64,000 nt of DNA from Lachnospiraceae bacterium (GTDB lineage: Bacteria; Bacillota; Clostridia; Lachnospirales; Lachnospiraceae): positions 3,186 to 67,185 of the forward strand of contig JAFUVF010000004.1 of the NCBI GenBank assembly GCA_017483735.1, in the 5' to 3' direction. This document shows positions 2,969-38,566 of this stretch, piece after piece. Every line of letters starts with the position of its first letter. Positions within the stretch are counted from its first letter, which is position 1. The notes under the pieces were generated by a model. It was given only the letters and a program-made list of their open reading frames with translations. It was not told the DNA's origin and did not search any database. Made by a program: the position numbers and the translations under genes.

Positions 2969-3684
2969 TAACCGTTTTTCGCAAAAACATCATCCTCGGG
3001 AATCTCTGTAAGTATCATATCCTCATAGGGTTTCCCAAGCTCCTTTAGCCCCTCTGCTATCATACCAGCATATGTAAATGCCCCATAATATCTTAAATGC
3101 GTGTTATCCGCCTTCCCCTCCGGATGGGTAAGATACAGCCCCTCCCTAAAGTTCATATACAGCGCCTTACTCTCATCATCTCCAAGCCTTGTAAGCAAAT
3201 CCCTGCTCTTTTTGCACAGGTCTATGACCGGTACGTTTTCTTTTCCGCCGAAATCAAGCTCCGCTTCGACATAGGGCGTGTGGGCGCTTGGCTTTAGCTT
3301 TCCCGTATCATCAAAAAGGCGCCTCTCTATTGGGGTCATTATCACGGGATATGCCGATACTGCTCTGGCAGTATCCGTAAAAAACTTAAGATTATCCCTA
3401 AAGCTTGTCTGCGGATCCGTGTAGCGCAGGGAATCCTCCTTCTTTTCATCATTATGTCCGAACTGTATAAATAGGAAATCCCCCTTGCCGATACCGGCCT
3501 GAACCGGCTTAAATCTGCTCTCGTCTATGAAGCTCTTGGTGCTCCTGCCGTTCTTTGCAAGGTTTATGACCTGATACTCGGGCTTTAAAAATATGGGAAG
3601 CACCTGTCCTATCCCTGTCTGTGGGAATTTCAGATGTACATTGGTCTGAACCGTGGAATCTCCGATATAATATACTTTAGGCAT
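2965..3684 (-). CDS. rhgT: rhamnogalacturonan acetylesterase (SGNH/GDSL hydrolase, CE12-like)
   Basis: 239 aa carrying the SGNH blocks IGDSTVQ (block I), GRSTKSF (II), FGHND (III) and DNTHL (V). The overall pattern matches Bacillus RhgT/YesT. Confidence 0.8.
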   Translation of the reverse strand: MPKVYYIGDSTVQTNVHLKFPQTGIGQVLPIFLKPEYQVINLAKNGRSTKSFIDESRFKPVQAGIGKGDFLFIQFGHNDEKKEDSLRYTDPQTSFRDNLKFFTDTARAVSAYPVIMTPIERRLFDDTGKLKPSAHTPYVEAELDFGGKENVPVIDLCKKSRDLLTRLGDDESKALYMNFREGLYLTHPEGKADNTHLRYYGAFTYAGMIAEGLKELGKPYEDMILTEIPEDDVFAKNGY

Positions 3685-3704
3685 TTCCTTCTCCTTTGCG
3701 ATAC

Positions 3705-3737
3705 CAAAAATAGAGCCAACCCTTTGGCTGGCTCTAT
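3705..3737 (-). terminator. rho-independent terminator after ABC operon 1
   Basis: On the minus strand, a stem ATAGAGCCAGCC/GGTTGGCTCTAT is followed by TTTTT. It sits immediately downstream of the permease stop at 3775. Confidence 0.6.
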
Positions 3738-3774
3738 TCTATCATACTGAATTATTATCCGCAATGCACAGAAA

Positions 3775-4638
3775 TTACTCTTTTACGGCACCTATATTCA
3801 CACCTGTTACGAAATACTTCTGCAGGAACGGATACAGAGCCATGAAAGGAAGCACCGCCACTACGATAGCTGCATAGTACAGGGTATTCTGGGATACCTT
3901 GTATGCAGAGGTAGGCGTATCTCCGTCCATGACGAGGACTCTTAGGATATACTGGAAGTTTACCTGGTCTCTGTCTACGATGTAAATCTGAACAGTTGAG
4001 TAGTCGTTCCACACCGTAACCGCATACATAAGTCCGATGGATGCTAACGCTGCCTTGGAAAGGGGAAGCACTATCTTAAAGAAGATTCCCATAGGGGAGC
4101 AGCCATCTATCTTCGCCGCCTCAAAGAGAGAGCCGGGTATGCCTTCAAAGAAGTTTCTCATAAGCACAAGGTTGTAAACGTTCATACCGTGCTTGACAAC
4201 CAATATCCACATATTGTTAGTCAAATGAAGCTGTCTCATAACCAAGTACTCGGGAATCATGCCTCCGGAGAATATCATGGTAAAGAGAAGGAAGAACGCC
4301 AATGCGTTACGTCCGGGCATCTCAAACTGGCAGAGCACATAACCTCCCAGAGTACTCATAATAAGTCCGAGGAGTGTTCCCAAAACCGTGGTAATTACAG
4401 AGTTAAGGAAGGGTCTGTACAGCTTCTGTGTGCCGAAGATTGTGAGATATCCGGCAGCCGTGGGCTGTGAAGGCCAAAGCTTAAACTGGTATACACCCAC
4501 CGCATTGAAGGAATCCACTATAACCTTCCAGATAGGTATGATGACTATGAGTGCAACAATAACAAATACTATGTAGTTTACAACGTCGAAAACATGAACC
4601 TTTTTCTTGGGCTGTCTGAATTCTATATCTTTTGCCAT
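3775..4638 (-). CDS. carbohydrate ABC transporter permease (LplC/YtcP-like), copy 1
   Basis: 287 aa and multi-TM, with the EAA-type loop FEAAKIDGCSPMGIFFKIVLPL. It is a paralogue of 11510-12373. Confidence 0.9.
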   Translation of the reverse strand: MAKDIEFRQPKKKVHVFDVVNYIVFVIVALIVIIPIWKVIVDSFNAVGVYQFKLWPSQPTAAGYLTIFGTQKLYRPFLNSVITTVLGTLLGLIMSTLGGYVLCQFEMPGRNALAFFLLFTMIFSGGMIPEYLVMRQLHLTNNMWILVVKHGMNVYNLVLMRNFFEGIPGSLFEAAKIDGCSPMGIFFKIVLPLSKAALASIGLMYAVTVWNDYSTVQIYIVDRDQVNFQYILRVLVMDGDTPTSAYKVSQNTLYYAAIVVAVLPFMALYPFLQKYFVTGVNIGAVKE

Positions 4639-4652
4639 TTTTCAAGCCCTCC

Positions 4653-5612
4653 TTATATAATACCGCGTCCGCGGACTTTTTTACTTGCCCAGTTGCAGAC
4701 AAGCACGAGCATACAGCCAACAAGTGACTTGAAGAGACCAACCGCAGTCGTATATCCATAGTTGGGTATTGCGGAAAGGAAGGTCTTTCTGTATACGTAT
4801 GTGGATATAACATCAGATACATCCAACACACGGGTATTGTACATAACGAATACAGACTCGAACATATTGAGCACCTTTGCAAGATTAAGGATAAGTACGA
4901 TAAGTACTGTGTTTGCAAGGGCGGGTACTGTTACATACCATATCTTCTGCATTCTGGTTGCGCCGTCTATGTCGGCCGCCTCATAGAGCTCGGGATTGAT
5001 ACCTGAAAGTGTTGCAAGGAAGATAACTGTTCCCCAACCTGTCTCCTTCCAGATATTTACCAGATAGAACACCGGACGCCACAGTGCAGGCTCATGTAGG
5101 AAGTCAATGCTCTCCGTGATAAGCCCCCATTCCTTTAAGGTCTCATTTATCATACCTGTGGATGATGCGGAGAGGAAAAGGGTAAATATAGCCGCCGTAA
5201 CTGTCCATGACATAAAGTGGGGCAGATAGATGACCGTCTGCAAAGCCTTCTTTGCAAGTAGATTACCCATCTCATTTATAAATACCGATACGATGACAGA
5301 TGTTGCCGTCGTTATTATCAATTTCATTATTGAAAGCTGGAGCGTGTTGAAGAAGGAGCGCCAGAAGTCTGACGAATCCTTGCCGAAGAACATGCTCTGG
5401 AAATGCTTGAAGCCTACAAATTCAATTTTCTTAAGTGTGTAATCATAGAACGAATAGCGTACGCCTAACATAGGCCAATAATAAATTATAAGCACATAGA
5501 TAAGAACCGGCAGGAACATTATATAGTAGCCTCTATGGTTCCATATCCGCGTTCCTAAAGGTTTGTGACGGATAACGGTTCCGTCTTCCGTTGCGAGAAC
5601 TTTTTTACTCAT
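4653..5612 (-). CDS. sugar ABC transporter permease (LplB/YteP-like), copy 1
   Basis: 319 aa with the EAA loop YEAADIDGATRMQKIWYVTVPAL. It is a paralogue of 10533-11495. Confidence 0.9.
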   Translation of the reverse strand: MSKKVLATEDGTVIRHKPLGTRIWNHRGYYIMFLPVLIYVLIIYYWPMLGVRYSFYDYTLKKIEFVGFKHFQSMFFGKDSSDFWRSFFNTLQLSIMKLIITTATSVIVSVFINEMGNLLAKKALQTVIYLPHFMSWTVTAAIFTLFLSASSTGMINETLKEWGLITESIDFLHEPALWRPVFYLVNIWKETGWGTVIFLATLSGINPELYEAADIDGATRMQKIWYVTVPALANTVLIVLILNLAKVLNMFESVFVMYNTRVLDVSDVISTYVYRKTFLSAIPNYGYTTAVGLFKSLVGCMLVLVCNWASKKVRGRGII

Positions 5613-5663
5613 ATGTACACCCTGCCTTTTGATAGTTTTTTTACTAATACCTTTGAAAATTTT

Positions 5664-5693
5664 GTCCCGTCGGGACTCCCGAGGAGGAGTCCC
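5664..5693 (-). promoter_or_regulatory. intercistronic stem-loop between the SBP and permease genes (copy 1)
   Basis: The mRNA strand forms GGGACUCC-UCCUCG-GGAGUCCC (8-bp GC-rich stem) followed by an A/U-rich stretch. An alternative small hairpin (GUCCC/GGGAC) shares one arm with it. Confidence 0.5.
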
Positions 5694-5715
5694 AAACGGA
5701 ACGGAAAATCATAGA

Positions 5716-7374
5716 TTACTGTGCATTGAGCTCGTCAAGTATGGTCTGAGCGGTGTCGCCCCACTTTGCCTGATACTCAGCAATAGCGTCAGCGCCGGTC
5801 TTCTTGCCGGTAACAACCTCGTTCATAAGCTTGGTCTTGTCACTTACGATATCAGAGTTTACCTCGGTAAGAGTATCGGAAGCTGCTGCCTGAGGAGCAT
5901 CTACGCAGTTCTCGGTAAAGAACTTGTTACCCTTCTCAACAAGGGGATCGCTATCAACGAAGCCGTTGGTAAGAGGTGCAATAACAAGGACTGCATCAAG
6001 GTGATTCTTCTTCCAGATGGAGTTAGGATCGTTGGGAGTGGGTCTCAAGTGGAACTGACCATCCTCATACTTGTACTCCTTCTTCTTCTCAGGGTCATCA
6101 GGGTTGGTAACGAACTCCTCAGCCTTGGTAGACCAGTGAACATCCTCAGCACCATAGGTCCAGAGAGTCTGTACCTTGTCGCCGTCAAGCATGGTGTCAA
6201 GAAGTGCATCGAAGATAGCCTGCTCACGGGAATCATCTCCGTCGCCATCATCAGTGATTACCCAAACGGGAGCCTCACGGTTGATGTAGCCGCCCCAGGT
6301 ATCCTTGATCTCCTTGATAGGAGGAAGCTGTACGAGTCTGTCATCGCCGAGCTCGGAATCTACTTCCTGCTTCTCCATGTTGTCGGTAAGAGTTCTGAGC
6401 CATGTACCTGCCCAATAAGTGAACACACCTTCGGAAGTGGTCTGATCGTTGGAGAAGAACTTCTCACGAGCGATCTTTGTGGTAGCTTCCTCAGTATCCT
6501 TATCAATGAGGCCATCCTTGTATGCGGTTGCAAGTCTGTCAAGCGCATCGATGGTAGCCTGCTCCTGGAAACCGTCTACCCAAGTGCCGTCCTTCTGATA
6601 GAAAGAAGGATAAGCACCCTGCCAGAACTCGGGCATGTAGTTGATGTAAGGAGCCTCGTCAAGCTTACCGAAGCCTGCTGCGATAACGCCGGTGGTCTTT
6701 CCGTTGGAGAAAGCCTTGAGCATATTGTAGTAGTCATCATAAGTCTTGATGTCATCGATCTTAAGTCCTGCTGCATCAAGCCAAGACTGCTTTACATAGG
6801 TAACGCATCCGTTTCCGTATGTAGGAGCGAATCCATAAAGCTCTCCGGAGGAGGTCTTCATGTTCTCATTGATTGAAGGAAGAGTGATCCTTGACTGGAA
6901 CTCTGCATTTGCATATGCGTCAGCGAGGTTCCAAAGGATACCGGTTGACTGATACTGTCTGAACATGGTAGCGCTCATAATGAGTGCATCGGGATAGCTT
7001 CCGTCTCCGGGCTGTCCGGTGGTAAGAAGCTGGGATACCTTATCAGAGTATCCTGAGTGCTCAGGCTGATTGATGTGAAGCTTAATGGGATGTCCGATCC
7101 TCTCGGAAACTGCTGCTTCCCACTGCTCAACGAAAGCATCCTGTCTGTTGTCTACGTTAGCGGTTACGGTACCGTCAACTGTGATGTAGAGATCCTCAAG
7201 TACATAAGGCTCTGCCTCAGTAGTTGTGGTGTTTCCACCATCGGTGGAAGTGGTGGTGCTTCCGCTGTTGCCGGAATCAGTAGATCCACCGTTATCGGTA
7301 GAGGTACCGCCGCAGGCTGCAAGAGATGCAACCATAGCAGAAGCGAGAAGTAATGCTAATACTTTCTTCTTCAT
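5716..7374 (-). CDS. extracellular solute-binding lipoprotein (LplA/YtcQ-type, family 1), copy 1
   Basis: 552 aa with lipoprotein signal MKKKVLALLLASAMVASLAACGG and a Ser/Thr/Gly-rich linker. It is the first gene of the operon and a paralogue of 8757-10436. Confidence 0.9.
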   Translation of the reverse strand: MKKKVLALLLASAMVASLAACGGTSTDNGGSTDSGNSGSTTTSTDGGNTTTTEAEPYVLEDLYITVDGTVTANVDNRQDAFVEQWEAAVSERIGHPIKLHINQPEHSGYSDKVSQLLTTGQPGDGSYPDALIMSATMFRQYQSTGILWNLADAYANAEFQSRITLPSINENMKTSSGELYGFAPTYGNGCVTYVKQSWLDAAGLKIDDIKTYDDYYNMLKAFSNGKTTGVIAAGFGKLDEAPYINYMPEFWQGAYPSFYQKDGTWVDGFQEQATIDALDRLATAYKDGLIDKDTEEATTKIAREKFFSNDQTTSEGVFTYWAGTWLRTLTDNMEKQEVDSELGDDRLVQLPPIKEIKDTWGGYINREAPVWVITDDGDGDDSREQAIFDALLDTMLDGDKVQTLWTYGAEDVHWSTKAEEFVTNPDDPEKKKEYKYEDGQFHLRPTPNDPNSIWKKNHLDAVLVIAPLTNGFVDSDPLVEKGNKFFTENCVDAPQAAASDTLTEVNSDIVSDKTKLMNEVVTGKKTGADAIAEYQAKWGDTAQTILDELNAQ

Positions 7375-7412
7375 TTCTTTCCTCCCTGTTTAATGAATGA
7401 AATGGTATAATT
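7226..7412. repeat. IR-L: high-identity core of the inverted repeat (5' UTR/SD plus first ~50 codons of SBP1)
   Basis: The reverse complement matches 8717-8908 with about 5 substitutions, a 1-nt indel and a 3-nt indel by hand alignment. This includes a perfect run of about 96 nt from AACAGGGAGGAAAGAA through codon 27. Confidence 0.85.
7403..7411 (+). promoter_or_regulatory. inward-facing extended -10 element TGgTATAAT inside IR-L
   Basis: The plus strand reads TGGTATAAT, pointing into the recombinase cassette and antisense to the recombinase 3' end. It is the mirror copy of the element at 8718-8726. Confidence 0.4.
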
Positions 7413-7437
7413 TATGCAGGAACAATTTCCCACACAA
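7410..7437 (-). promoter_or_regulatory. candidate promoter for ABC operon 1 (TTGTGT-16-TGcATAAAT)
   Basis: On the minus strand the -35 is TTGTGT (7432-7437), followed by a 16-nt spacer ending in TGc, then the -10 ATAAAT (7410-7415). The -10 straddles the boundary between unique spacer DNA and IR-L. Confidence 0.45.
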
Positions 7438-7560
7438 TGCAATCATATCATTATTGTGTCGTTTAGGCAAGAAATTTTTGTCAAAAAGCAATAAAAAACA
7501 CTTGAAATTTACGCCGTTTTTTCGTTATTTTTTTGACAAATCCCTGACTGTCCAGAGCCA

Positions 7561-8622
7561 TTATGGAGCCAAGCCGTATTCATCATTAAGCTTTTGCGCC
7601 AACTCCCTCTGTTTTCCGGGATATAAATGCGAATATGTGTCCAAAGTGGTCTCTATCTTTTCGTGTCCCAGCCTCTCCGCAATGAGAAGCGGCGTCACGC
7701 CCATTTCTATGAGAAGTGATGCGTGGGAATGCCTGAGGTCATGCACCCTTATCCTATGAAGCTTTGCCATGTCAGCATGCCGTTTCAGCGAATATTCTAT
7801 ATGAAAGCGGCTTACTCCAAAAATTCTTCCGTCATCGGGGCAACCCTTTCTTATTATATATTCTGCAACAGCATAACACAAGAAGTCCGGCAGAGTAACC
7901 GCCCTCACGCCTTTTTTTGACTTTGGCGGAGTCGTCACATCCTGTCCCTTTATGCGTTGATATGATTTTGTTATGCTTATACTCCCCTCCTCGGTATTGA
8001 TATCATTCGGTGTCAGAGCCAGAAGCTCTCCCACTCTCATTCCTGTCCAGTACAGCAATAGGAAGATAAGCCTGTCGGCATAATCCTCATCCGAAGAAAG
8101 GGTCTTTATAAAGACTTCAAATTCTTCCCTCGTCCAAAAGTTCAGCTCCTTCGTCTTGTTATTTCCTATGCTTCCTGCCCTCCTGCACGGATTGTCATTT
8201 AGTCCGTAATACTTTTCGGCATACGAGAAAAGTGCCTTAAGCTGGCTGTTTAACTGCTTTAAATACGTGGGCGAATACTCCCTTTTAAGCATTTCGTTCT
8301 GCCAGCCTCTGATGTCCGGCGGTTTGATATCGCACAGGTACATGTTTTTAAAGTACGGTATTATGTGCTTTTCGAACAAATACCGCTTGCCCCTGACTGT
8401 ATTCACACGAAGCCGTACATCCATATCGTCAAGATACAGTCTTGCAAACTCATCAAACCTTACACTCATATATTTCTGCATGGATTCCTTGAAATTCTTT
8501 TCCCATTCAAGAGCATCCCGCTTACGCATAAATCCCCTTTTGTTTTTCTTGCGCCGAACCCCTTGCCAGTCCACATAATAGAACTGGCAGCGCCATTTCT
8601 TTCCGTCCTTGTTCGCAGACAT
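7561..8622 (-). CDS. site-specific tyrosine recombinase (phage integrase family)
   Basis: 353 aa with an N-terminal arm-type DNA-binding region (KKWRCQFYYVDWQG). The catalytic signature is present: WTGMRVGE (Arg), HDLRHSHAS (His-x-x-Arg) and LGHEKIETTLDTYSHLY (His ... Tyr). An AGGAGG sits 8 nt upstream of the ATG. Confidence 0.9.
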   Translation of the reverse strand: MSANKDGKKWRCQFYYVDWQGVRRKKNKRGFMRKRDALEWEKNFKESMQKYMSVRFDEFARLYLDDMDVRLRVNTVRGKRYLFEKHIIPYFKNMYLCDIKPPDIRGWQNEMLKREYSPTYLKQLNSQLKALFSYAEKYYGLNDNPCRRAGSIGNNKTKELNFWTREEFEVFIKTLSSDEDYADRLIFLLLYWTGMRVGELLALTPNDINTEEGSISITKSYQRIKGQDVTTPPKSKKGVRAVTLPDFLCYAVAEYIIRKGCPDDGRIFGVSRFHIEYSLKRHADMAKLHRIRVHDLRHSHASLLIEMGVTPLLIAERLGHEKIETTLDTYSHLYPGKQRELAQKLNDEYGLAP

Positions 8623-8716
8623 AATTTCCTCCTATCAAAAAATGAGAGCCAAAATGGAGCCACGGAAAAAATTGTCATAATTTAATCCGTCGATTCCCTT
8701 ATGAACCCTCGCCCCT

Positions 8717-8908
8717 AATTATACCATTTCAATTCATTATAACAGGGAGGAAAGAAATGAAGAAGAAAGTATTAGCATTACTTCTCGCTTCTGCTATGGT
8801 TGCATCTCTTGCAGCCTGCGGCGGTACCTCTACCGACAACGGTGGATCTACCGATTCCGGCAACAGCGGAAGCACCACCACCACTTCCACCGACGGTGGA
8901 AACACCAC
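8717..8908. repeat. IR-R: high-identity core of the inverted repeat (5' UTR/SD plus first ~50 codons of SBP2)
   Basis: Partner of 7226-7412; see that entry. Confidence 0.85.
8718..8726 (-). promoter_or_regulatory. extended -10 promoter TGgTATAAT inside IR-R, oriented to drive the recombinase
   Basis: The minus strand reads TGGTATAAT, about 95 nt upstream of the recombinase ATG. I found no other good promoter between it and the gene. Confidence 0.45.
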
Positions 8909-10436
8909 TACCGCAGAGCCTTACGTACTTGATGAGCTCTACGTAATCGTTGACGGTACTCTTACTGCTACCGTTGACAGCGGTCAGGATGCTTTTATTG
9001 AGCAGTGGGAGCAGCTTGTAGGCGAAAAGATCGGACATCCCATCAAGCTTACCATCGAGCAGCCCGAGCACTCCGGCTATCAGGCAACAGTATCCCAGAT
9101 ACTGTCCACCAGACAGCAGAGCGATGCGGATTATCCCGATGCAATGATAATGAGCGCATCAATGTTCAGAGAGTATCAGACCACCGGTATTCTTTGGGAT
9201 ATGGCAAACGCTTATGACAACGCTGATTTCCATGCAAATGTCCGTTTCCAGAACAACGAGTTCAACAAGGACTCCCAGGGACGTATGTATGGTATCGCAC
9301 CTACCAGAGGAAACGGATGCGTTACCTATGTAAAGCAGACCTGGCTTGACGCAGTAGGCATGAAGCTTGATGACATCAAGACCTTCGATGACTACTACAA
9401 GATGCTCAAGGCATTTGCCGAGAACGACCCCGACGGCAACGGAAAGGGCGGCACCTACGGCGCTATCGCTGCCGGCTATGCAAATATCGGCGAGGCTCCT
9501 TACATCAACTATCTTCCTGAGTTCTGGCAGGGCGCATATCCCGCAATCCTCCAGAGAGACGGCGTATGGGTTGACGGATTCCAGGAGCAGGCTACCATCG
9601 ATGCTCTTACCAGACTCCATCAGGCTTATGTTGACGGTGTAATCGATCCCGATACCGAGGAAGCTGGCACCAAGCAGGCTCGTGAGAAGTTCTGGAATGC
9701 AGATCAGAGTGTTGCATCCGGAACCTTCGCATACTGGGCAGGAACCTGGTATAACAATATTACCAACAACATGATCAAGCAGGGCATTATGGCAGAGGGA
9801 GACCAGCAGAAGGATCTTGTAATGCTTCCTCCAATCAAGGAAATTCAGGACACCTGGGGCGGACTTATCGACAGAGAGGCTCCCGTTTGGGTAATCACTG
9901 ATGACGGCGACGGCGATGATTCCCGTGAGCAGGCTATCTTTGATGCTCTCATCGAGACCATGCTCGACGGCGACAAGGTAGAGACCCTCTGGGTATACGG
10001 TGCAGAGGATGTTCACTGGTCTGTAAAGGCTGAGGATTTCGAGACTGTTACCGGAGATGACAAGAAGGTTACCGAGTATCATTATGAGGACGGACAGTTC
10101 CACTTAAAGCAGTCCCCTAATGACCCTAACTCTATCTGGTCCAAGAACCACCTTGATCCCATCCTTGTAATCGTACCCCTTACCAACGGTTATGACGATC
10201 CCAACCCCGTTGTACAGGCAGGTAACGACTTCTTCAACAAGTATGCGATTGCAGCTCCTGTTTCACCCGCAAGTGAGACTCTTACCGAGATTCAGTCCGA
10301 GCTTACCGATGCTAAGAAGGTAGCTATCAATGCGGCCGTTACCGGCGAGAAGACTCCTGAGGAGGCTGTTGCAGAGTATGTTGCAGCTTGGGGAGATACC
10401 GTTCAGGGAATTCTTGACGAGTTAAACGCTCAGTAA
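8757..10436 (+). CDS. extracellular solute-binding lipoprotein (LplA/YtcQ-type), copy 2
   Basis: 559 aa. The signal peptide and linker match copy 1 (one extra Thr). The mature domain is roughly two-thirds identical to copy 1 by eye. Confidence 0.9.
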   Translation: MKKKVLALLLASAMVASLAACGGTSTDNGGSTDSGNSGSTTTTSTDGGNTTTAEPYVLDELYVIVDGTLTATVDSGQDAFIEQWEQLVGEKIGHPIKLTIEQPEHSGYQATVSQILSTRQQSDADYPDAMIMSASMFREYQTTGILWDMANAYDNADFHANVRFQNNEFNKDSQGRMYGIAPTRGNGCVTYVKQTWLDAVGMKLDDIKTFDDYYKMLKAFAENDPDGNGKGGTYGAIAAGYANIGEAPYINYLPEFWQGAYPAILQRDGVWVDGFQEQATIDALTRLHQAYVDGVIDPDTEEAGTKQAREKFWNADQSVASGTFAYWAGTWYNNITNNMIKQGIMAEGDQQKDLVMLPPIKEIQDTWGGLIDREAPVWVITDDGDGDDSREQAIFDALIETMLDGDKVETLWVYGAEDVHWSVKAEDFETVTGDDKKVTEYHYEDGQFHLKQSPNDPNSIWSKNHLDPILVIVPLTNGYDDPNPVVQAGNDFFNKYAIAAPVSPASETLTEIQSELTDAKKVAINAAVTGEKTPEEAVAEYVAAWGDTVQGILDELNAQ

Positions 10437-10472
10437 AAGTAAACCATTTATAAAGACATTTATGTTCTGTCA

Positions 10473-10500
10473 GATATCCCGTCCTTCGGGGCGGGATATC
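10473..10500 (+). promoter_or_regulatory. intercistronic stem-loop between the SBP and permease genes (copy 2)
   Basis: GATATCCCG...CGGGATATC forms a 9-bp outer stem with a GC-rich interior, followed by TTTAAAAAAAA. It occupies the same position as the copy-1 hairpin but has an unrelated sequence. Confidence 0.5.
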
Positions 10501-10532
10501 TTTAAAAAAAACGAAAGAGATGGGTAAAGCTT

Positions 10533-11495
10533 ATGGCAAAAAACAAATTTGAAACAACCTCAAACGGAGTGCCTATAAGACACAAGCCATTAGGAATGCG
10601 TATCTGGAACAACAGAGGGTTTTATCTCATGTTTCTTCCCGTGTTTATCTTCGTTCTAATCATCAACTATTGGCCTATGTTGGGTATCCGCTATTCATTC
10701 TATGACTACACAGTAAAGAAAATGGAATGGGTGGGGCTTAAACATTTCCAGGATATGTTCTCCGGCAAAAACTCTTCTGATTTCTGGAGATCATTTTTTA
10801 ACACACTTGAACTTTCGATAATGAAATTATTGATAACGACTGCCGCATCGGTAATCGTATCCGTATTTATAAATGAAATGGGCAATCTTCTTGCCAAAAA
10901 GACATTGCAGACAGTTATCTACCTGCCTCACTTCCTTTCATGGGCGGTTACGGCAGCTATATTTACTCTGTTCCTCTCAGCTTCATCTACAGGCTTTGTA
11001 AACGAGACCTTAAAGAGCTGGGGAGTACTGGAACGAAGTATAGACTTCCTGCATCTGCCAACGTGGTGGCGGCCTATCTTCTATCTCATAAACATATGGA
11101 AAGAGACAGGATGGGGAACGGTTATATTCCTTGCCACATTATCCGGTATCAATCCGGAGCTCTACGAGGCGGCGGATATAGACGGTGCAACCAGAATGCA
11201 GAAGATATGGTATGTAACAGTACCCGCCCTTGCAAACACGGTAATTATAGTGCTTATACTGAATCTTGCAAAGGTTCTCAATATGTTCGAGTCGGTATTC
11301 GTACTTTACAACACCAGAGTTTATGATGTGTCGGACGTTATCTCCACATACATCTACAGAAAGACCTTTATGGCTGCGGTTCCCAATTACGGCTTTACCA
11401 CCGCTGTAGGTCTGTTTAAATCTATTGTGGGCGCATTCCTTGTACTCGTCTGCAACTGGGCAAGCAAAAAAATCCGCGGACGCGGAATTATATAA
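10533..11495 (+). CDS. sugar ABC transporter permease (LplB/YteP-like), copy 2
   Basis: 320 aa, very similar to 4653-5612 along its whole length. Confidence 0.9.
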   Translation: MAKNKFETTSNGVPIRHKPLGMRIWNNRGFYLMFLPVFIFVLIINYWPMLGIRYSFYDYTVKKMEWVGLKHFQDMFSGKNSSDFWRSFFNTLELSIMKLLITTAASVIVSVFINEMGNLLAKKTLQTVIYLPHFLSWAVTAAIFTLFLSASSTGFVNETLKSWGVLERSIDFLHLPTWWRPIFYLINIWKETGWGTVIFLATLSGINPELYEAADIDGATRMQKIWYVTVPALANTVIIVLILNLAKVLNMFESVFVLYNTRVYDVSDVISTYIYRKTFMAAVPNYGFTTAVGLFKSIVGAFLVLVCNWASKKIRGRGII

Positions 11496-11509
11496 GGAGG
11501 GCTTGAAAA

Positions 11510-12373
11510 ATGGCAAAGGATATAGAATTCAGAAAGCCCAAGACAAAGATACATCTTTTCGATGTTATAAACTATATAGTGTTTGTTATTGTGGCGCTTA
11601 TCGTCCTTATTCCACTGTGGAAGATTGTGGTGGATTCCTTTAATGCAGTGGGTGTATACCAGTTCAGATTCTGGCCCAACCGCCCCACGGTAGCTGGATA
11701 CCTTACGATTTTCTCCACAAATAAGCTGTACAGACCCCTTCTCAATTCCTTTATCACTACGATATTCGGAACCTTGCTGGGGCTTGTGCTCTCCACTCTC
11801 GGAGGCTATGTACTAACTCAGGAGGAAATGCCCTTCAGAAACGGGTTGTCCTATTTTCTCCTGTTTACCATGATATTCTCCGGAGGACTTATCCCCGAGT
11901 ATCTGGTAATGAGACAGCTCCACCTTGTAAACAATATGTGGATATTGGTTGTTAAGCACGGTATGAACGTTTACAACCTCGTGCTTATGAGAAACTTCTT
12001 TGAAGGCATTCCCGGCTCCCTCTTTGAGGCGGCGAAGATAGATGGCTGCTCCCCTATGGGAATCTTCTTTAAGATAGTGCTTCCCCTTTCCAAGGCAGCA
12101 TTAGCGTCCATCGGACTTATGTTTGCGGTTACCGTATGGAACGATTATTCAACGGTTCAGATCTATATAAACAACCGTGATCAGGTAAACTTCCAGTACA
12201 TTCTTCGTGTAATGGTCATGGACGGAGATACGCCGACGACACAGTATGCGGTATCACAGAATACCCTGTACTATGCGGCGATAGTCGTAGCCATCCTGCC
12301 ATTCATGGTGCTGTACCCGTTCTTGCAGAAGTATTTCGTACAGGGCGTAAATGTAGGTGCAGTAAAGGAATAA
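11510..12373 (+). CDS. carbohydrate ABC transporter permease (LplC/YtcP-like), copy 2
   Basis: 287 aa. It shares long identical protein runs with 3775-4638, for example NNMWILVVKHGMNVYNLVLMRNFFEGIPGSLFEAAKIDGCSPMGIFFKIVLPLSKAALASIGLM. Confidence 0.9.
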   Translation: MAKDIEFRKPKTKIHLFDVINYIVFVIVALIVLIPLWKIVVDSFNAVGVYQFRFWPNRPTVAGYLTIFSTNKLYRPLLNSFITTIFGTLLGLVLSTLGGYVLTQEEMPFRNGLSYFLLFTMIFSGGLIPEYLVMRQLHLVNNMWILVVKHGMNVYNLVLMRNFFEGIPGSLFEAAKIDGCSPMGIFFKIVLPLSKAALASIGLMFAVTVWNDYSTVQIYINNRDQVNFQYILRVMVMDGDTPTTQYAVSQNTLYYAAIVVAILPFMVLYPFLQKYFVQGVNVGAVKE

Positions 12374-12384
12374 TTATCAAAGCT

Positions 12385-12414
12385 AAAGGCTGCGGAACCT
12401 CCGCAGCCTTTTTT
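12385..12414. terminator. bidirectional rho-independent terminator between convergent genes
   Basis: The sequence is AAAGGCTGCGG-AACCT-CCGCAGCCTTTTTT, with an A-run on one side and a T-run on the other. It lies between the permease stop and the ispD stop. Confidence 0.75.
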
Positions 12415-13141
12415 ATATCCTTTTTTCGATTATCCTCTGCGCTATTCCCACATCCTCCGGCGTCGTTATCTTGATATTCTCATAGCTTCCGAGGGTTAGC
12501 TTTACCTTTTTATCCGTATACAGCTCGCATAACGAGGCATCATCGGTTATATTTATGCCCTCGGAAATGAGCTTATCCGCCTCATCCTCGAATTTAAAGT
12601 AGGCATCCCTTATAAGCTTATATTCAAAAACCTGCGGTGTCTGTATGTTCCAAACCCTGCTTCTGTCGGGTGTCTCCTTCACAAAGCCCTCTTCGTCCGC
12701 TATCTTTACAGTATCCTTGGAGGGCACCGCTGCGACACAGGCTCCACACTCGCGCACATCATTGTACAGCCTCTCTAACATCTCCTCATCCACAAAGGGT
12801 CTTGCCCCGTCCTGAACAAAGATATATCCATCACCTTCGATAAGTCCTTCATCCTCTATATAATGAAGCGCATTTGCTACGGAAAAATACCTCTCGCTCC
12901 CTCCGCAAGCAATACCGCAGACCTTCTTAAAGCTATGCGCCTCCACAATCTCCCTGCGTACCCTTTCGACATCCTGCGCTCCCGCTACAAGCACGATGCC
13001 TTCTATAATATTCGAGGCTTCAAATGCATTCAGGGCATACCATATGAGAGGATGCCCCGATATTTCCATATATTGCTTGGGTACAGCGCCGCCCATGCGG
13101 CTGCCGCTCCCCCCTGCGAGGATTATACCTATATTTTTCAT
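12413..13141 (-). CDS. ispD: 2-C-methyl-D-erythritol 4-phosphate cytidylyltransferase
   Basis: 242 aa with the N-terminal motif ILAGGSGSRMGGAVPKQY and IspD-like length and pattern. Confidence 0.85.
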   Translation of the reverse strand: MKNIGIILAGGSGSRMGGAVPKQYMEISGHPLIWYALNAFEASNIIEGIVLVAGAQDVERVRREIVEAHSFKKVCGIACGGSERYFSVANALHYIEDEGLIEGDGYIFVQDGARPFVDEEMLERLYNDVRECGACVAAVPSKDTVKIADEEGFVKETPDRSRVWNIQTPQVFEYKLIRDAYFKFEDEADKLISEGINITDDASLCELYTDKKVKLTLGSYENIKITTPEDVGIAQRIIEKRI

Positions 13142-13142
13142 A

Positions 13143-14174
13143 TTATCCCCCTAATTTAAGGTTCGGCACCGCATTCAGCGTGTAGTCATCCCTCACTCCC
13201 TTTATGAATTCGTAGTATCCTGCGCAGGCTATCATCGCACCATTGTCCGTGCAGAGTATGGGAGCTGGTCTGTAAAAGCTTATGCCCTGCTTTTCGCACT
13301 CCGTTTCAAATGCTTCTCTGAGCGCAAAGTTGGACGCAACGCCGCCGGCAATGGCGAATTTGTCATATCCGTATTCCTTCACAGCCCTTATCGAATGCTC
13401 CACAAGTACGTCGCATACCGCTTTCTGGAAGGAAGCCGCCACATCGGCGGTATTGACCTCCTCTCCCTTCATATTACAGCCGTTTATGTAGTTGAGCACA
13501 GCGCTCTTTAAGCCACTGAAGGAAAAATCATAATCGTTCCCTTCAACCCTGGCTCTGGGGAAGTCTATGGCATATGGATTCCCTTCCCTTGCAAGCTTAT
13601 CTATCTTCGGACCTCCGGGGTATCCCAGTCCTATAGCCCTTGCCACCTTGTCAAAGGCTTCTCCTGCAGCGTCATCCCTCGTGCGCCCTATTACCTCATA
13701 TTCTCCGTAATCCTTCACAACCACCAGATGTGAATGTCCTCCGGATGCCACAAGGCATACAAAGGGTGGCTTAAGCTGCTTATTCTCGATATAATTTGCG
13801 CTTATATGCCCTTCAATATGATGTACTCCCACAAGTGGTAGCCCCGCAGCGAAGCTCATAGCCTTGGCTTCCGCCACTCCAACAAGAAGCGGTCCCACAA
13901 GCCCCGGCCCGTAGGTAACGGCGATGGCATCCATATCCTTAAGCTCCATACACGCCGAAGCAAGCGCTTCCTTAATTACCTGATTTATGCGCTCTATGTG
14001 CTTCCTCGACGCTATCTCCGGTACCACGCCGCCGTACAGGGTGTGTATCGGTACCTGTGATGATATAATATTAGAAAGCAGCTCTCTGCCGTTTTTCACA
14101 ACAGACGCTGCCGTTTCATCACAGGATGTTTCTATTCCCAATATGTATATGTCCTTTTCGGTGCTGACATTCAT
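13143..14174 (-). CDS. tsaD: tRNA N6-adenosine threonylcarbamoyltransferase
   Basis: 343 aa with Kae1/Gcp/TsaD hallmarks ([26 protein letters not shown]). Confidence 0.95.
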
Positions 14175-37261: not shown

Positions 37262-38566
37262 ATGATTAAGATGAAAAAGTTCCTTGCACTGGCGCTGAGC
37301 GCCGCAATGACAGCCGGCATACTCGCAGGCTGCGGCTCCGATGGAAGCACAAACGGCGGTTCTACCGGCGGAAGCACTTCCGGAAACGGCGCAACAATTA
37401 CCATACTCAATTCAAAGATGGAGATTCAGGAGCAGCTTGAAAAGATGGCTGAGTCCTACGGAAAGTCAAAGGGAGTCAATGTTGAGGTTTACTACTCCAG
37501 CGACACAATCGCAGCACACCTCTCCACCAGATATGCTTCCAACGAACCCTACACCATTTCAATGGTTGATGCAAAGGATGTATACTCTCTCGCAAAGGAG
37601 CACGCAGTTGACCTCTCCGGCGAGGATTGGGTAAAGGATACCACCGAGGCAATCTCAATAGACGGCAAGGTTTACGGCTTCCCCGTATGTGTTGAGGCAA
37701 GAGGAATCATCTACAATGCCGATGCCATCAAGGCGATCACGGGAAGCGACTTTGATCCTGCAAGCGTTAAGACACTTGACGATTTCAACAAGCTCCTCTC
37801 AGATTTAAAGGCAGGCGGCATGGCGGCTCCCACCGGTATAATGAAGGAGGACTGGTCCCTTGCAGCACACTTCCTTGCAGAGGTTTATGAGCAGCAGGCT
37901 GACCCCGATGCATTCATAAAGGGACTTCACGACGGCACAACCCATATGGCTGATGATGCAATCTTCAACTCCATGATGGACACCTTCGATGCATTAAAGG
38001 CAAACAACTACGCAGAGGCAAGCGCAATCTCCGCAGAGCGTGAGGTTACCGAGCAGAAGCTTGCGGAAGGCGAACTCGCATTTATGTTTGGCGGCAACTG
38101 GGACTGGTCCGTAATCAATCAGTATGACTACTCAGATAATATGGGAATCATGCCTGTACCTCAGAACGGCTCCACTGACGCAAACACCAAGCTTGTAGGC
38201 GGCGGCTCCAAGTACTTCTTCATTGATTCCTCAAGCAACACCTCCGACGAGCAGGTTCAGGCGGCAAAGGATTTCTTAAACTGGATGGTATATGATTCCG
38301 AAGGACAGAGCTTCCTTGTAAACGAGTGTGCATTAGTTCCCGCATTCTCAAATATTACCCTCGCAGTTTCAGACCCTCTCGGCGCATCCGTAAAGACCTA
38401 CGCCGACAAGGGAGCACTCATTGGAAACTACAACTATCTTCCCGATGACCACTACTCAAAGCTCGGCGCTGCATTCCAGGAGTATCTTGCAAACAAGACC
38501 GACAGAGCAGGCTTTGGCGCAGCTATTGACAGCTATTGGCAGGCAGCAACTCTCTCTGAGCACTAA
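37262..38566 (+). CDS. sugar ABC transporter substrate-binding lipoprotein (CUT1)
   Basis: About 434 aa from MIKMKKFLALALSAAMTAGILAGCGS (lipobox). The long N-terminal extension in the ORF track lacks an RBS. Confidence 0.85.
   Translation: MIKMKKFLALALSAAMTAGILAGCGSDGSTNGGSTGGSTSGNGATITILNSKMEIQEQLEKMAESYGKSKGVNVEVYYSSDTIAAHLSTRYASNEPYTISMVDAKDVYSLAKEHAVDLSGEDWVKDTTEAISIDGKVYGFPVCVEARGIIYNADAIKAITGSDFDPASVKTLDDFNKLLSDLKAGGMAAPTGIMKEDWSLAAHFLAEVYEQQADPDAFIKGLHDGTTHMADDAIFNSMMDTFDALKANNYAEASAISAEREVTEQKLAEGELAFMFGGNWDWSVINQYDYSDNMGIMPVPQNGSTDANTKLVGGGSKYFFIDSSSNTSDEQVQAAKDFLNWMVYDSEGQSFLVNECALVPAFSNITLAVSDPLGASVKTYADKGALIGNYNYLPDDHYSKLGAAFQEYLANKTDRAGFGAAIDSYWQAATLSEH

Follow-up and report, generated by a model that had tools for sequence, protein, structure and literature searches.

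Why do two diverged copies of an operon stay almost identical where they flank a recombinase gene, and could these stretches pass a promoter from one copy to the other? The question is raised by a 64-kb stretch of DNA (the window) from a rumen Lachnospiraceae bacterium, in which positions 3775–12373 hold two inverted copies of a three-gene operon, arranged head to head. The genes of a copy specify a large lipoprotein, the substrate-binding protein (SBP), and two permeases of the BPD_transp_1 kind (P1 and P2); the sole open reading frame (ORF) between the copies, on the minus strand at 7561–8622, encodes a tyrosine recombinase of 353 aa, hereafter the integrase. Near-identical inverted repeats, IR_L and IR_R, lie at the starts of the two SBP genes and bound a candidate invertible segment (Table 1). 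We conclude that the repeats are homogenised by recombination and can mediate an inversion by which the promoter passes between the operons, and that they probably have done so; programmed, integrase-driven switching is unproven. That the repeats are the substrates of such a hand-over, whatever the enzyme and at a frequency that is low in the populations sampled, has in our judgement about an even chance of being right.

Near-identical repeats at the borders of an integrase segment

Global alignment of the reverse complement of IR_L with IR_R confirmed the near-identity of the two stretches that a sequence-only reading of the window had reported. That reading had counted about five substitutions, a 1-nt indel and a 3-nt indel, which was close; the alignment gives three substitutions, two 1-nt indels and one 3-nt indel. 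All three substitutions are T/C (8837, 8852 and 8894), both 1-nt indels fall in the 5′ untranslated region (UTR; 8731 and 8740), and the 3-nt indel lies at 8873–8875. The perfect run of about 96 nt through codon 27 was found again, at 96 nt. In IR_L, the encoded signal peptide is of the lipoprotein type, with the lipobox LAAC, and is followed by a linker rich in S, T, G and N.

Outside the repeats, the 3.6-kb arms are 55–85% identical in 60-nt windows. At 78% identity, the chance of a 96-nt perfect run is ~0.78^96 per position, or roughly 1e-7 over the whole arm. The proportion of synonymous differences (pS, Nei–Gojobori) is 0.04 in SBP codons 1–30 and then climbs through 0.12, 0.21 and 0.41, up to 0.5–0.7 further in. 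Since pS is this low over the first 30 codons and about 40 nt of non-coding leader match as well, the identity of the repeats is a property of the DNA and not of the protein. Selection on the signal peptide and on translation initiation could by itself keep two 5′ ends alike, and the peptide is indeed conserved among orthologs (MKKKVL..AMVASLAACG). Synonymous-site identity and the identical leader refute this explanation, as the sequence-only reading had held, and orthologs with the same peptide differ at 11–30 of the 69 signal-peptide nucleotides; we consider it extremely improbable.

Nor is the repeat a generic signal-peptide module, because a 48-mer of its core has only two copies in the window and the sequence is absent from the other lipoprotein genes there, such as that at 37271. 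That gene (37271–38566) probably also encodes an SBP (MKKFLALALSAAMTAGILAGCGSDGSTNGGSTGG...), with a similar G/S/T-rich linker and no DNA identity to the repeat. The repeats end abruptly on their inner sides, at 7412 and 8717, precisely where the 1,304-nt recombinase segment begins and ends. Exchange of DNA between the two copies, at the exact borders of this segment, is implied, in agreement with what had been proposed from the sequence.

Collapse or mis-joining of a repeat could in principle create such a pattern, given that the source is a metagenome and that Logan contigs, assembled at k=31, end at the repeat: L002 and L004 consist of exactly 7413–8716 plus 30 nt (k−1) of the perfect core on each side, and are uninformative on orientation. 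We give an assembly artefact almost no credence, for the same sequence and arrangement recur in seven assemblies (the window, L001, L003, L129, L130, L131 and L132) which come from three or more biosamples and were made by two pipelines (scaffold_* and megahit k141); none of the seven differs within either repeat. In addition, the arms are only 75–80% identical, which speaks against a palindromic chimera, and a k of 141 spans the 96-nt perfect core.

Table 1. Features of the locus, in window coordinates
Feature	Position	Strand	Description
Left inverted repeat, IR_L	7226..7412	-	187 nt; last 38 nt of the 5′ UTR, ribosome-binding site (RBS), start codon, signal peptide and SBP_L linker
Right inverted repeat, IR_R	8717..8908	+	192 nt; same module at the start of SBP_R
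Perfect repeat core, 96 nt	7295..7390 = 8741..8836	(-) = (+)	from AACAGGGAGG to codon 27
Candidate invertible segment	7413..8716		1,304 nt bounded by the repeats
Promoter P	7442..7470	-	TTGCCT (7470-7465), 17-nt spacer, TGaTATGAT (-10 at 7447-7442); reads into SBP_L at present
Ancestral-type SBP upstream region	7413..7545	- (left-operon sense)	far-upstream element, promoter, first 23 nt of leader with 5′ hairpin
Tyrosine recombinase (integrase), intact	7561..8622	-	353 aa; Arm-DNA-bind_4, SAM-like and catalytic domains (Pfam)
Arm-type motif, copy 1	7554..7571	-	+ strand AGAGCCATTATGGAGCCA, integrase-sense TGGCTCCATAATGGCTCT; overlaps the integrase stop codon; 141 nt from IR_L
Arm-type motif, copy 2	8645..8662	-	+ strand AGAGCCAAAATGGAGCCA; 24 nt upstream of the integrase ATG; 54 nt from IR_R
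Near-perfect palindrome AAATTGTCATAATTT	8669..8683	+	between arm motif 2 and IR_R; read from sequence
T7 homopolymer (A7 in integrase sense)	7912..7918		polymorphic; T8 allele frameshifts the integrase after 263 aa
Left operon, L-type	3775..7374	-	SBP_L 5716-7374, P1_L 4653-5612, P2_L 3775-4638; GDSL lipase gene next, as in orthologous loci
Right operon, R-type	8757..12373	+	SBP_R 8757-10436, P1_R 10533-11495, P2_R 11510-12373; without ancestral promoter
P2 homogenised patch, EAA-loop region	4015..4195, partner 11954..12133	(-), (+)	97-98% identical, 80-nt perfect run, pS 0.09-0.18

The promoter and the two gene types

The segment between the repeats contains, in order, an upstream region with its promoter, arm motif 1, the integrase gene, arm motif 2 and a 54-nt arm. 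In a consensus scan, promoter P was the only consensus promoter facing either SBP gene, and its position and spacing match those of promoters in orthologous single-copy operons. The region around it, 7413–7545, is colinear with the IspD–SBP intergenic region of one such relative, L139 (local score 31, reached by 0 of 200 shuffles); the two have in common a far-upstream element, the −35, the −10 and a 5′ leader hairpin. Upstream of SBP_R, homology ends at −40, which is the repeat edge, and no ancestral-type promoter is present. As judged from sequence, the two operons have one ancestral promoter between them, inside the repeat-bounded segment. Despite having no ancestral promoter, the right operon is maintained by selection, because all 15 of its haplotype single-nucleotide polymorphisms (SNPs) are synonymous.

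Between arm motif 2 and IR_R, the near-perfect palindrome holds an extended −10-like element, TGTCATAAT (8673–8681), that faces SBP_R; it has no −35 and was not called by the consensus scan. The palindrome could be a cassette-borne promoter, an operator, a site for an accessory protein or part of the integrase promoter region. A rightward promoter remnant that we considered at 7499–7531 (ACTTGAAATTT..TATTTT) was rejected, as it has no homology to the left promoter and comparison with L139 shows 7413–7545 to be a single left-sense region. An 11-nt perfect inverted repeat, TTTGTCAAAAA / TTTTTGACAAA, occurs at 7477–7487 and 7530–7540 between the promoter and the integrase stop codon, its arms 42 nt apart; one arm is kept in L139 (ATTTGTCAAAAA). 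L-type operons of Butyrivibrio (L013, L014, L016, L018–L020, L027 and L041) carry TGAAA(G/A)(C/T)GCTTACA, which resembles a catabolite-responsive element (cre), between promoter and RBS. Since the leader in the window is without this element, catabolite control may differ here.

Relatives of the two operons fall into two orthogroups. L-type proteins, found in many Butyrivibrio and other Lachnospiraceae, share 77–85% aa identity with SBP_L and 62–66% with SBP_R, and R-type proteins (L133, L139 and L140) share 77–79% with SBP_R and 64–67% with SBP_L. A scan of GTDB species and of the closer relatives (L133, L139, L140 and L141) returned only single-copy operons without a recombinase. The canonical single-copy locus reads TsaD–IspD–(promoter)–SBP–P1–P2–GDSL lipase. 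In the window, the GDSL lipase gene follows P2_L, as in the canonical locus, and IspD adjoins the 3′ end of the inverted right operon. This placement marks the right operon and the integrase module as the extra material.

The 5′ module and the left gene body differ in type. Promoter, UTR and repeat look R-type, resembling L139, and are joined to an L-type SBP_L body; the SBP_R body is itself R-type. In the repeat, 58 of the 69 signal-peptide nucleotides agree with L139, whereas other orthologs agree at 39–54. The upstream score of 31 exceeds the maximum among ortholog pairs, both at 60–70% SBP identity (23, 70 pairs) and at 75–80% (27.5, 34 pairs). By IspD, the L139 host is no nearer to the window organism than other hosts are, so that host relatedness does not explain the likeness. 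We did not count the missing upstream similarity to L-type loci, since calibration showed such regions to be usually unalignable at 75–85% SBP identity. The discordance of types hints at a past inversion across the repeats. In the simplest history, promoter, leader and right operon would first have been contiguous, with the native left gene attached to the integrase arm at its position −40; a single crossover, between the 5′ ends, would then have given the present arrangement.

The integrase and its mobile-element relatives

In Pfam, the integrase matches PF00589 with its catalytic domain (E=5e-23), PF14657 with its N-terminal arm-type DNA-binding domain (E=2e-9) and PF14659 with its SAM-like core-binding domain (E=8e-17). 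In an alignment with 24 relatives and integrases from the PDB, the catalytic residues R196, H294, R297, H320 and Y330 are present, and all 92 columns that are invariant among the 24 relatives, integrases of integrative mobilizable elements (IMEs), are kept, the arm-binding N-terminus included. Outside the same locus, its closest relatives are 50–57% identical, with none above 57% among 5.8 billion proteins. Those with visible context are the integrases of IMEs inserted at the 3′ end of guaA (L005–L012 and L049–L128), which carry Xis, Int, NikA-like, RepA-like, AAA_25 and relaxase (Mob) genes. A protein scan of metagenome contigs with the integrase likewise returned only IME integrases, at ~55% identity. 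The integrase ORF stands alone between the repeats, where xis, NikA-like, RepA-like and relaxase genes are all missing.

An 18-nt motif, AGAGCCAnnATGGAGCCA, has exactly two copies in 64 kb, which flank the integrase gene in direct orientation with the 16 specified bases exact. Among related IME loci, 53 of 80 carry TGGCTC(T/C)nnnnTGGCTC, always in the integrase sense. There it lies 59 nt inside the left attachment (att) core, GAGTTTGAGTAA, and, where the right end is visible, ~104 nt before the repeated right core, with right-end copies observed in L060, L064 and L069. By this match to related IME ends, the two copies at our locus are arm-type sites of the integrase. At the C-terminus, which is fused into motif 1, the integrase tail diverges from all IME integrases exactly where that motif starts.

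From its composition, the 1,163-nt stretch 7554–8716 is a stripped IME module, consisting of arm, motif, integrase and motif: integrase ORF, RBS and both arm motifs are retained, and the remaining IME genes are lost. With the guaA-type IMEs it shares the integrase family, the domain architecture, the sense of the arm motifs and their distances from the edges (59/~104 nt there, 54/141 nt here). It departs from them in having no accessory genes, in lying away from guaA and in its ends, which are inverted 190-nt repeats in SBP genes without similarity to GAGTTTGAGTAA instead of direct 12-nt att cores at guaA. In our view the module either still amounts to more than debris or did so until recently, because the integrase has been kept together with both arm sites and with all family-invariant residues, and has no close mobile relatives.

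Related guaA-type IMEs (L005, L008 and L069) occur in tandem or leave remnants, and units of core plus motif recur away from guaA; in L008 an additional, degenerate motif, TGGCTACATTTTGGCTACA, lies ~190 nt upstream of the core. In the window, the interval that separates P2_L from the GDSL gene contains a hairpin, AATAGAGCCAaccctttGGCTGGCTCTATT (3709–3738), with AGAGCCA and TGGCTCT in its stems. These equal half-sites of the arm motif, in an inverted arrangement; the hairpin is probably a terminator and the resemblance coincidental.

Inversion, conversion and known switches

How could one set of repeats give rise to all of these features? In the reading that we favour, the repeats are the homologous 5′ ends of two old paralogous operons, whose bodies are synonymously saturated. 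Recombination between the copies would hold ~190 nt near-identical, in a tract of the right-hand lineage type that ends sharply on its inner side because homology stops there. A crossover between the repeats would invert the 1,304-nt segment, such that promoter and 5′ leader pass to the other operon. The enzyme making it could be the integrase, with a core site that lies at the repeat or within it, or RecA, with 96–141 nt of perfectly matching sequence to act on. Without a crossover, this exchange would result in gene conversion, which would maintain the identity of the repeats. The present state, with a right-type 5′ module on a left-type body and a promoter-less right operon beside the integrase arm, would be the product of at least one inversion. 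We infer, and do not observe, that inversion occurred or still occurs, which enzyme acts, and that only the promoter-linked operon is expressed. A more specific version, in which an IME reduced to its integrase and two arm sites was exapted as a reversible, integrase-mediated switch of promoter, leader and signal peptide between a native and a horizontally acquired operon, with its attachment junction in their common 5′ end and the slippage-prone A7 tract locking the state, seems to us rather unlikely.

Several findings weigh against the hand-over reading. All seven assemblies are colinear and have the same orientation, including the three whose integrase is intact (the window, L001 and L130), which make up one of the two haplotypes of the locus. 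Since the assemblers bridged the repeat, one orientation must dominate each sample. The T8 allele, which truncates the integrase ahead of its catalytic residues and marks the other haplotype, is present in four of the seven assemblies (L003, L129, L131 and L132) and, over four runs, in Logan contig L004, which indicates that the integrase is dispensable. Its nearest relatives are all integrases of mobile elements, and comparison of the IME att core with the repeats and their edges gave no similarity above shuffles, leaving no core site definable. The right operon might be expressed without any inversion, from TGTCATAAT. The argument from a right-type promoter has a single locus, L139, behind it, as L133 and L140 have no upstream similarity to 7413–7545; the history that we draw is for that reason only suggestive. 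In the survey of Milman et al. 2023, moreover, SBPs of ATP-binding cassette (ABC) transporters are under-represented among predicted programmed inversions, with odds ratios of about 0.36–0.41 (PMC9881135).

A further point against concerns the homogenisation itself. The windowed profile has the expected identity peak at the repeats, and it is the strongest between the arms, but it is not the sole one. Troughs of pS lie at SBP codons 1–45, P2 codons 151–210 and P1 codons 211–255, the last with a pS of about 0.3 and a 53-nt perfect run. Near-identical stretches also lie at 4885–5004 / 11144–11263 and at the P1/P2 junction (4615–4704 / 11444–11533), which is 92–97% identical. Mosaic gene conversion thus runs along the arms. 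Because the permease patches sit 3–4 kb from any recombinase, ordinary conversion suffices for the identity of the repeats. The proposal that homogenisation marks a site-specific crossover site does not survive this comparison. In addition, a conservative, site-specific exchange at one fixed point would not by itself homogenise 190 nt. In the other haplotype, the P2 patch has two additional differences, at 12043 and 12094, which dates conversion there as recent; the L- or R-type of the gene is unchanged across it, which identifies it as a non-crossover tract. Apart from this patch, haplotype SNPs set against paralog-derived conversion tracts gave a mixed pattern. A two-inversion swap, with the P2 patch as second crossover point, was rejected, since it predicts P2 3′ ends of opposite type and these were not seen.

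The same patches are the natural starting point for a reading in which conversion is all there is. The cassette would be a decaying IME leftover between two operons, the repeat one of several RecA-dependent non-crossover tracts, its inner edge sharp only because the insertion interrupts the homology, and the right operon transcribed from a cassette-borne or otherwise unrecognised promoter, with no relevant inversion. The candidate extended −10 facing SBP_R fits this account, as do the single orientation, the common frameshift allele, the related single-copy loci without a recombinase, and nearest integrase relatives (~55% identity) that all reside in IMEs with xis, rep and relaxase genes. It leaves unexplained why an L139-like, R-type promoter, leader and repeat sit on an L-type gene body, and why two precise deletions took out every other IME gene yet left the integrase ORF with its RBS and the two arm motifs. 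An integrase that keeps every family-invariant residue and has no relative above 57% argues for long residence under constraint. The GC content and third-position GC content (GC3) of integrase and right operon are equal to host values. Finally, crossover and non-crossover outcomes share intermediates, so that conversion between inverted repeats implies some inversion. We regard conversion alone as a possible explanation, although not one we would expect to hold.

At the other extreme, the locus could be an active phase-variation switch, a subset of the favoured reading, in which the domesticated integrase binds its arm sites and a core in each repeat and flips the segment at high frequency. 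Each cell would express one set of SBP and permeases, as bet-hedging on substrate range or to evade phages or antibodies. The architectural evidence is the same (integrase residues, arm motifs and a promoter in the segment), the right operon is under purifying selection without an ancestral promoter of its own, and the Vpma/Xer1 system sets a precedent (PMC2268961). The assemblies give it less room: the three with an intact integrase lack the second orientation, no assembly breaks at the repeat, and the frameshifted integrase is frequent. An exact-pattern scan of JGI (Joint Genome Institute) metagenome contigs for the cassette end, made in search of the other orientation, gave 0 matches, and exact look-ups of the integrase, SBP_L, SBP_R and P0121 returned the same locus only, always in the same orientation. 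The repeats are also about 10 times the typical length of a recombinase site, no core site was identified, and site-specific exchange would not homogenise 190 nt. We therefore hold an active integrase-catalysed switch to be doubtful. The inversion system suggested by the sequence-only reading is, in sum, plausible, given the only ancestral-type promoter and arm sites inside the segment and the discordance of types; that it is active and driven by the recombinase is not shown, with seven of seven assemblies in one orientation and four of seven frameshifted.

Variation between assemblies extends beyond the cassette. The T7/T8 tract could reflect simple decay or a slippage-prone lock. In the GDSL lipase gene, six to seven haplotype SNPs, three of them non-synonymous, cluster within 45 nt (3173–3217), which looks like a short imported recombination tract. 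L129 is >99.8% identical to the window except in ~1.1 kb covering IspD and TsaD (12710–13778), where about 80 of its 116 differences lie; this appears to be a recombination import adjoining the right operon.

What would such a hand-over act upon? Left and right copies share 68% aa identity in the SBPs, 83% in P1 and 86% in P2. PF00528 was found in all four permeases, which match UgpA/E-, MalF/G- and GlcT/U-like proteins, and neither operon has an ATPase gene. AlgQ1/AlgQ2, along with further oligosaccharide binders of family 1, are distant relatives of the SBPs; closer relatives are labelled 'putative aldouronate transport' by JGI, and the relative in L140 neighbours UxaC and UxaA. On these grounds, both operons are assigned as predicted carbohydrate importers of the LplABC type (CUT1-type) without an ATPase gene of their own. 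An Rfam scan of 3000–13500 returned nothing relevant.

Known switches offer partial parallels. In the Salmonella Hin / fljBA H-segment, a serine recombinase acts on 26-bp hix sites with an enhancer and turns one operon ON or OFF. As there, a recombinase gene and an outward promoter would share an inverted-repeat-bounded segment of ~1 kb whose orientation sets the promoter target; here, unlike in Hin, the hand-over would be between two paralogous operons, and the repeats are part of the regulated coding sequence. The promoter-swap shufflons of Bacteroides SusC/SusD are related systems of inverted paralogs near a tyrosine recombinase.

The closest likeness in layout is to Vpma of Mycoplasma agalactiae, where lipoprotein genes with a common 5′ UTR and signal peptide share one promoter and an adjacent tyrosine recombinase, Xer1, and where inversion at sites in the conserved 5′ region has been established experimentally to move the promoter to another gene (PMC2268961). 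Like Vpma and the Vsp system of M. bovis, our locus combines a conserved 5′ UTR and lipoprotein signal peptide, one ancestral-type promoter and a tyrosine recombinase gene. It differs in having two targets only, which are whole three-gene ABC-importer operons and not stand-alone surface antigens; in its IME-type integrase, which has an arm-binding domain and arm-type sites and is not Xer-like; and in repeats of ~190 nt compared with a 21–72-nt site. Switching, too, has not been observed here. With the gene-altering inversions surveyed by Milman et al. (PMC9881135), the locus shares inverted paralogous copies near a tyrosine recombinase, one transcribed 5′ part and alternative downstream parts. 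Unlike in those inversions, both copies here keep their full 5′ end (RBS, start codon and signal peptide), and the single-copy part is the promoter and the first 23 nt of the leader only.

If the segment does not flip, the locus would be a clear natural case of inverted paralogs that undergo mosaic gene conversion, with a mobile-element insertion as its boundary, and a caution that near-identical inverted repeats beside a recombinase are insufficient evidence for an inversion system. If it does flip, a gut or rumen Firmicute would switch between two complete carbohydrate importers by promoter hand-over, and would do so in a target class, the ABC SBPs, that is depleted among surveyed programmed inversions (PMC9881135). 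An integrase derived from a mobile element and still accompanied by its arm sites would then be a concrete intermediate in the evolution of integrases into invertases. Were the exapted IME such a switch, what varies in phase would be the specificity of nutrient uptake, or else a surface lipoprotein that phages use. A segment that flips would also extend phase variation from surface antigens and restriction systems to the uptake of nutrients.

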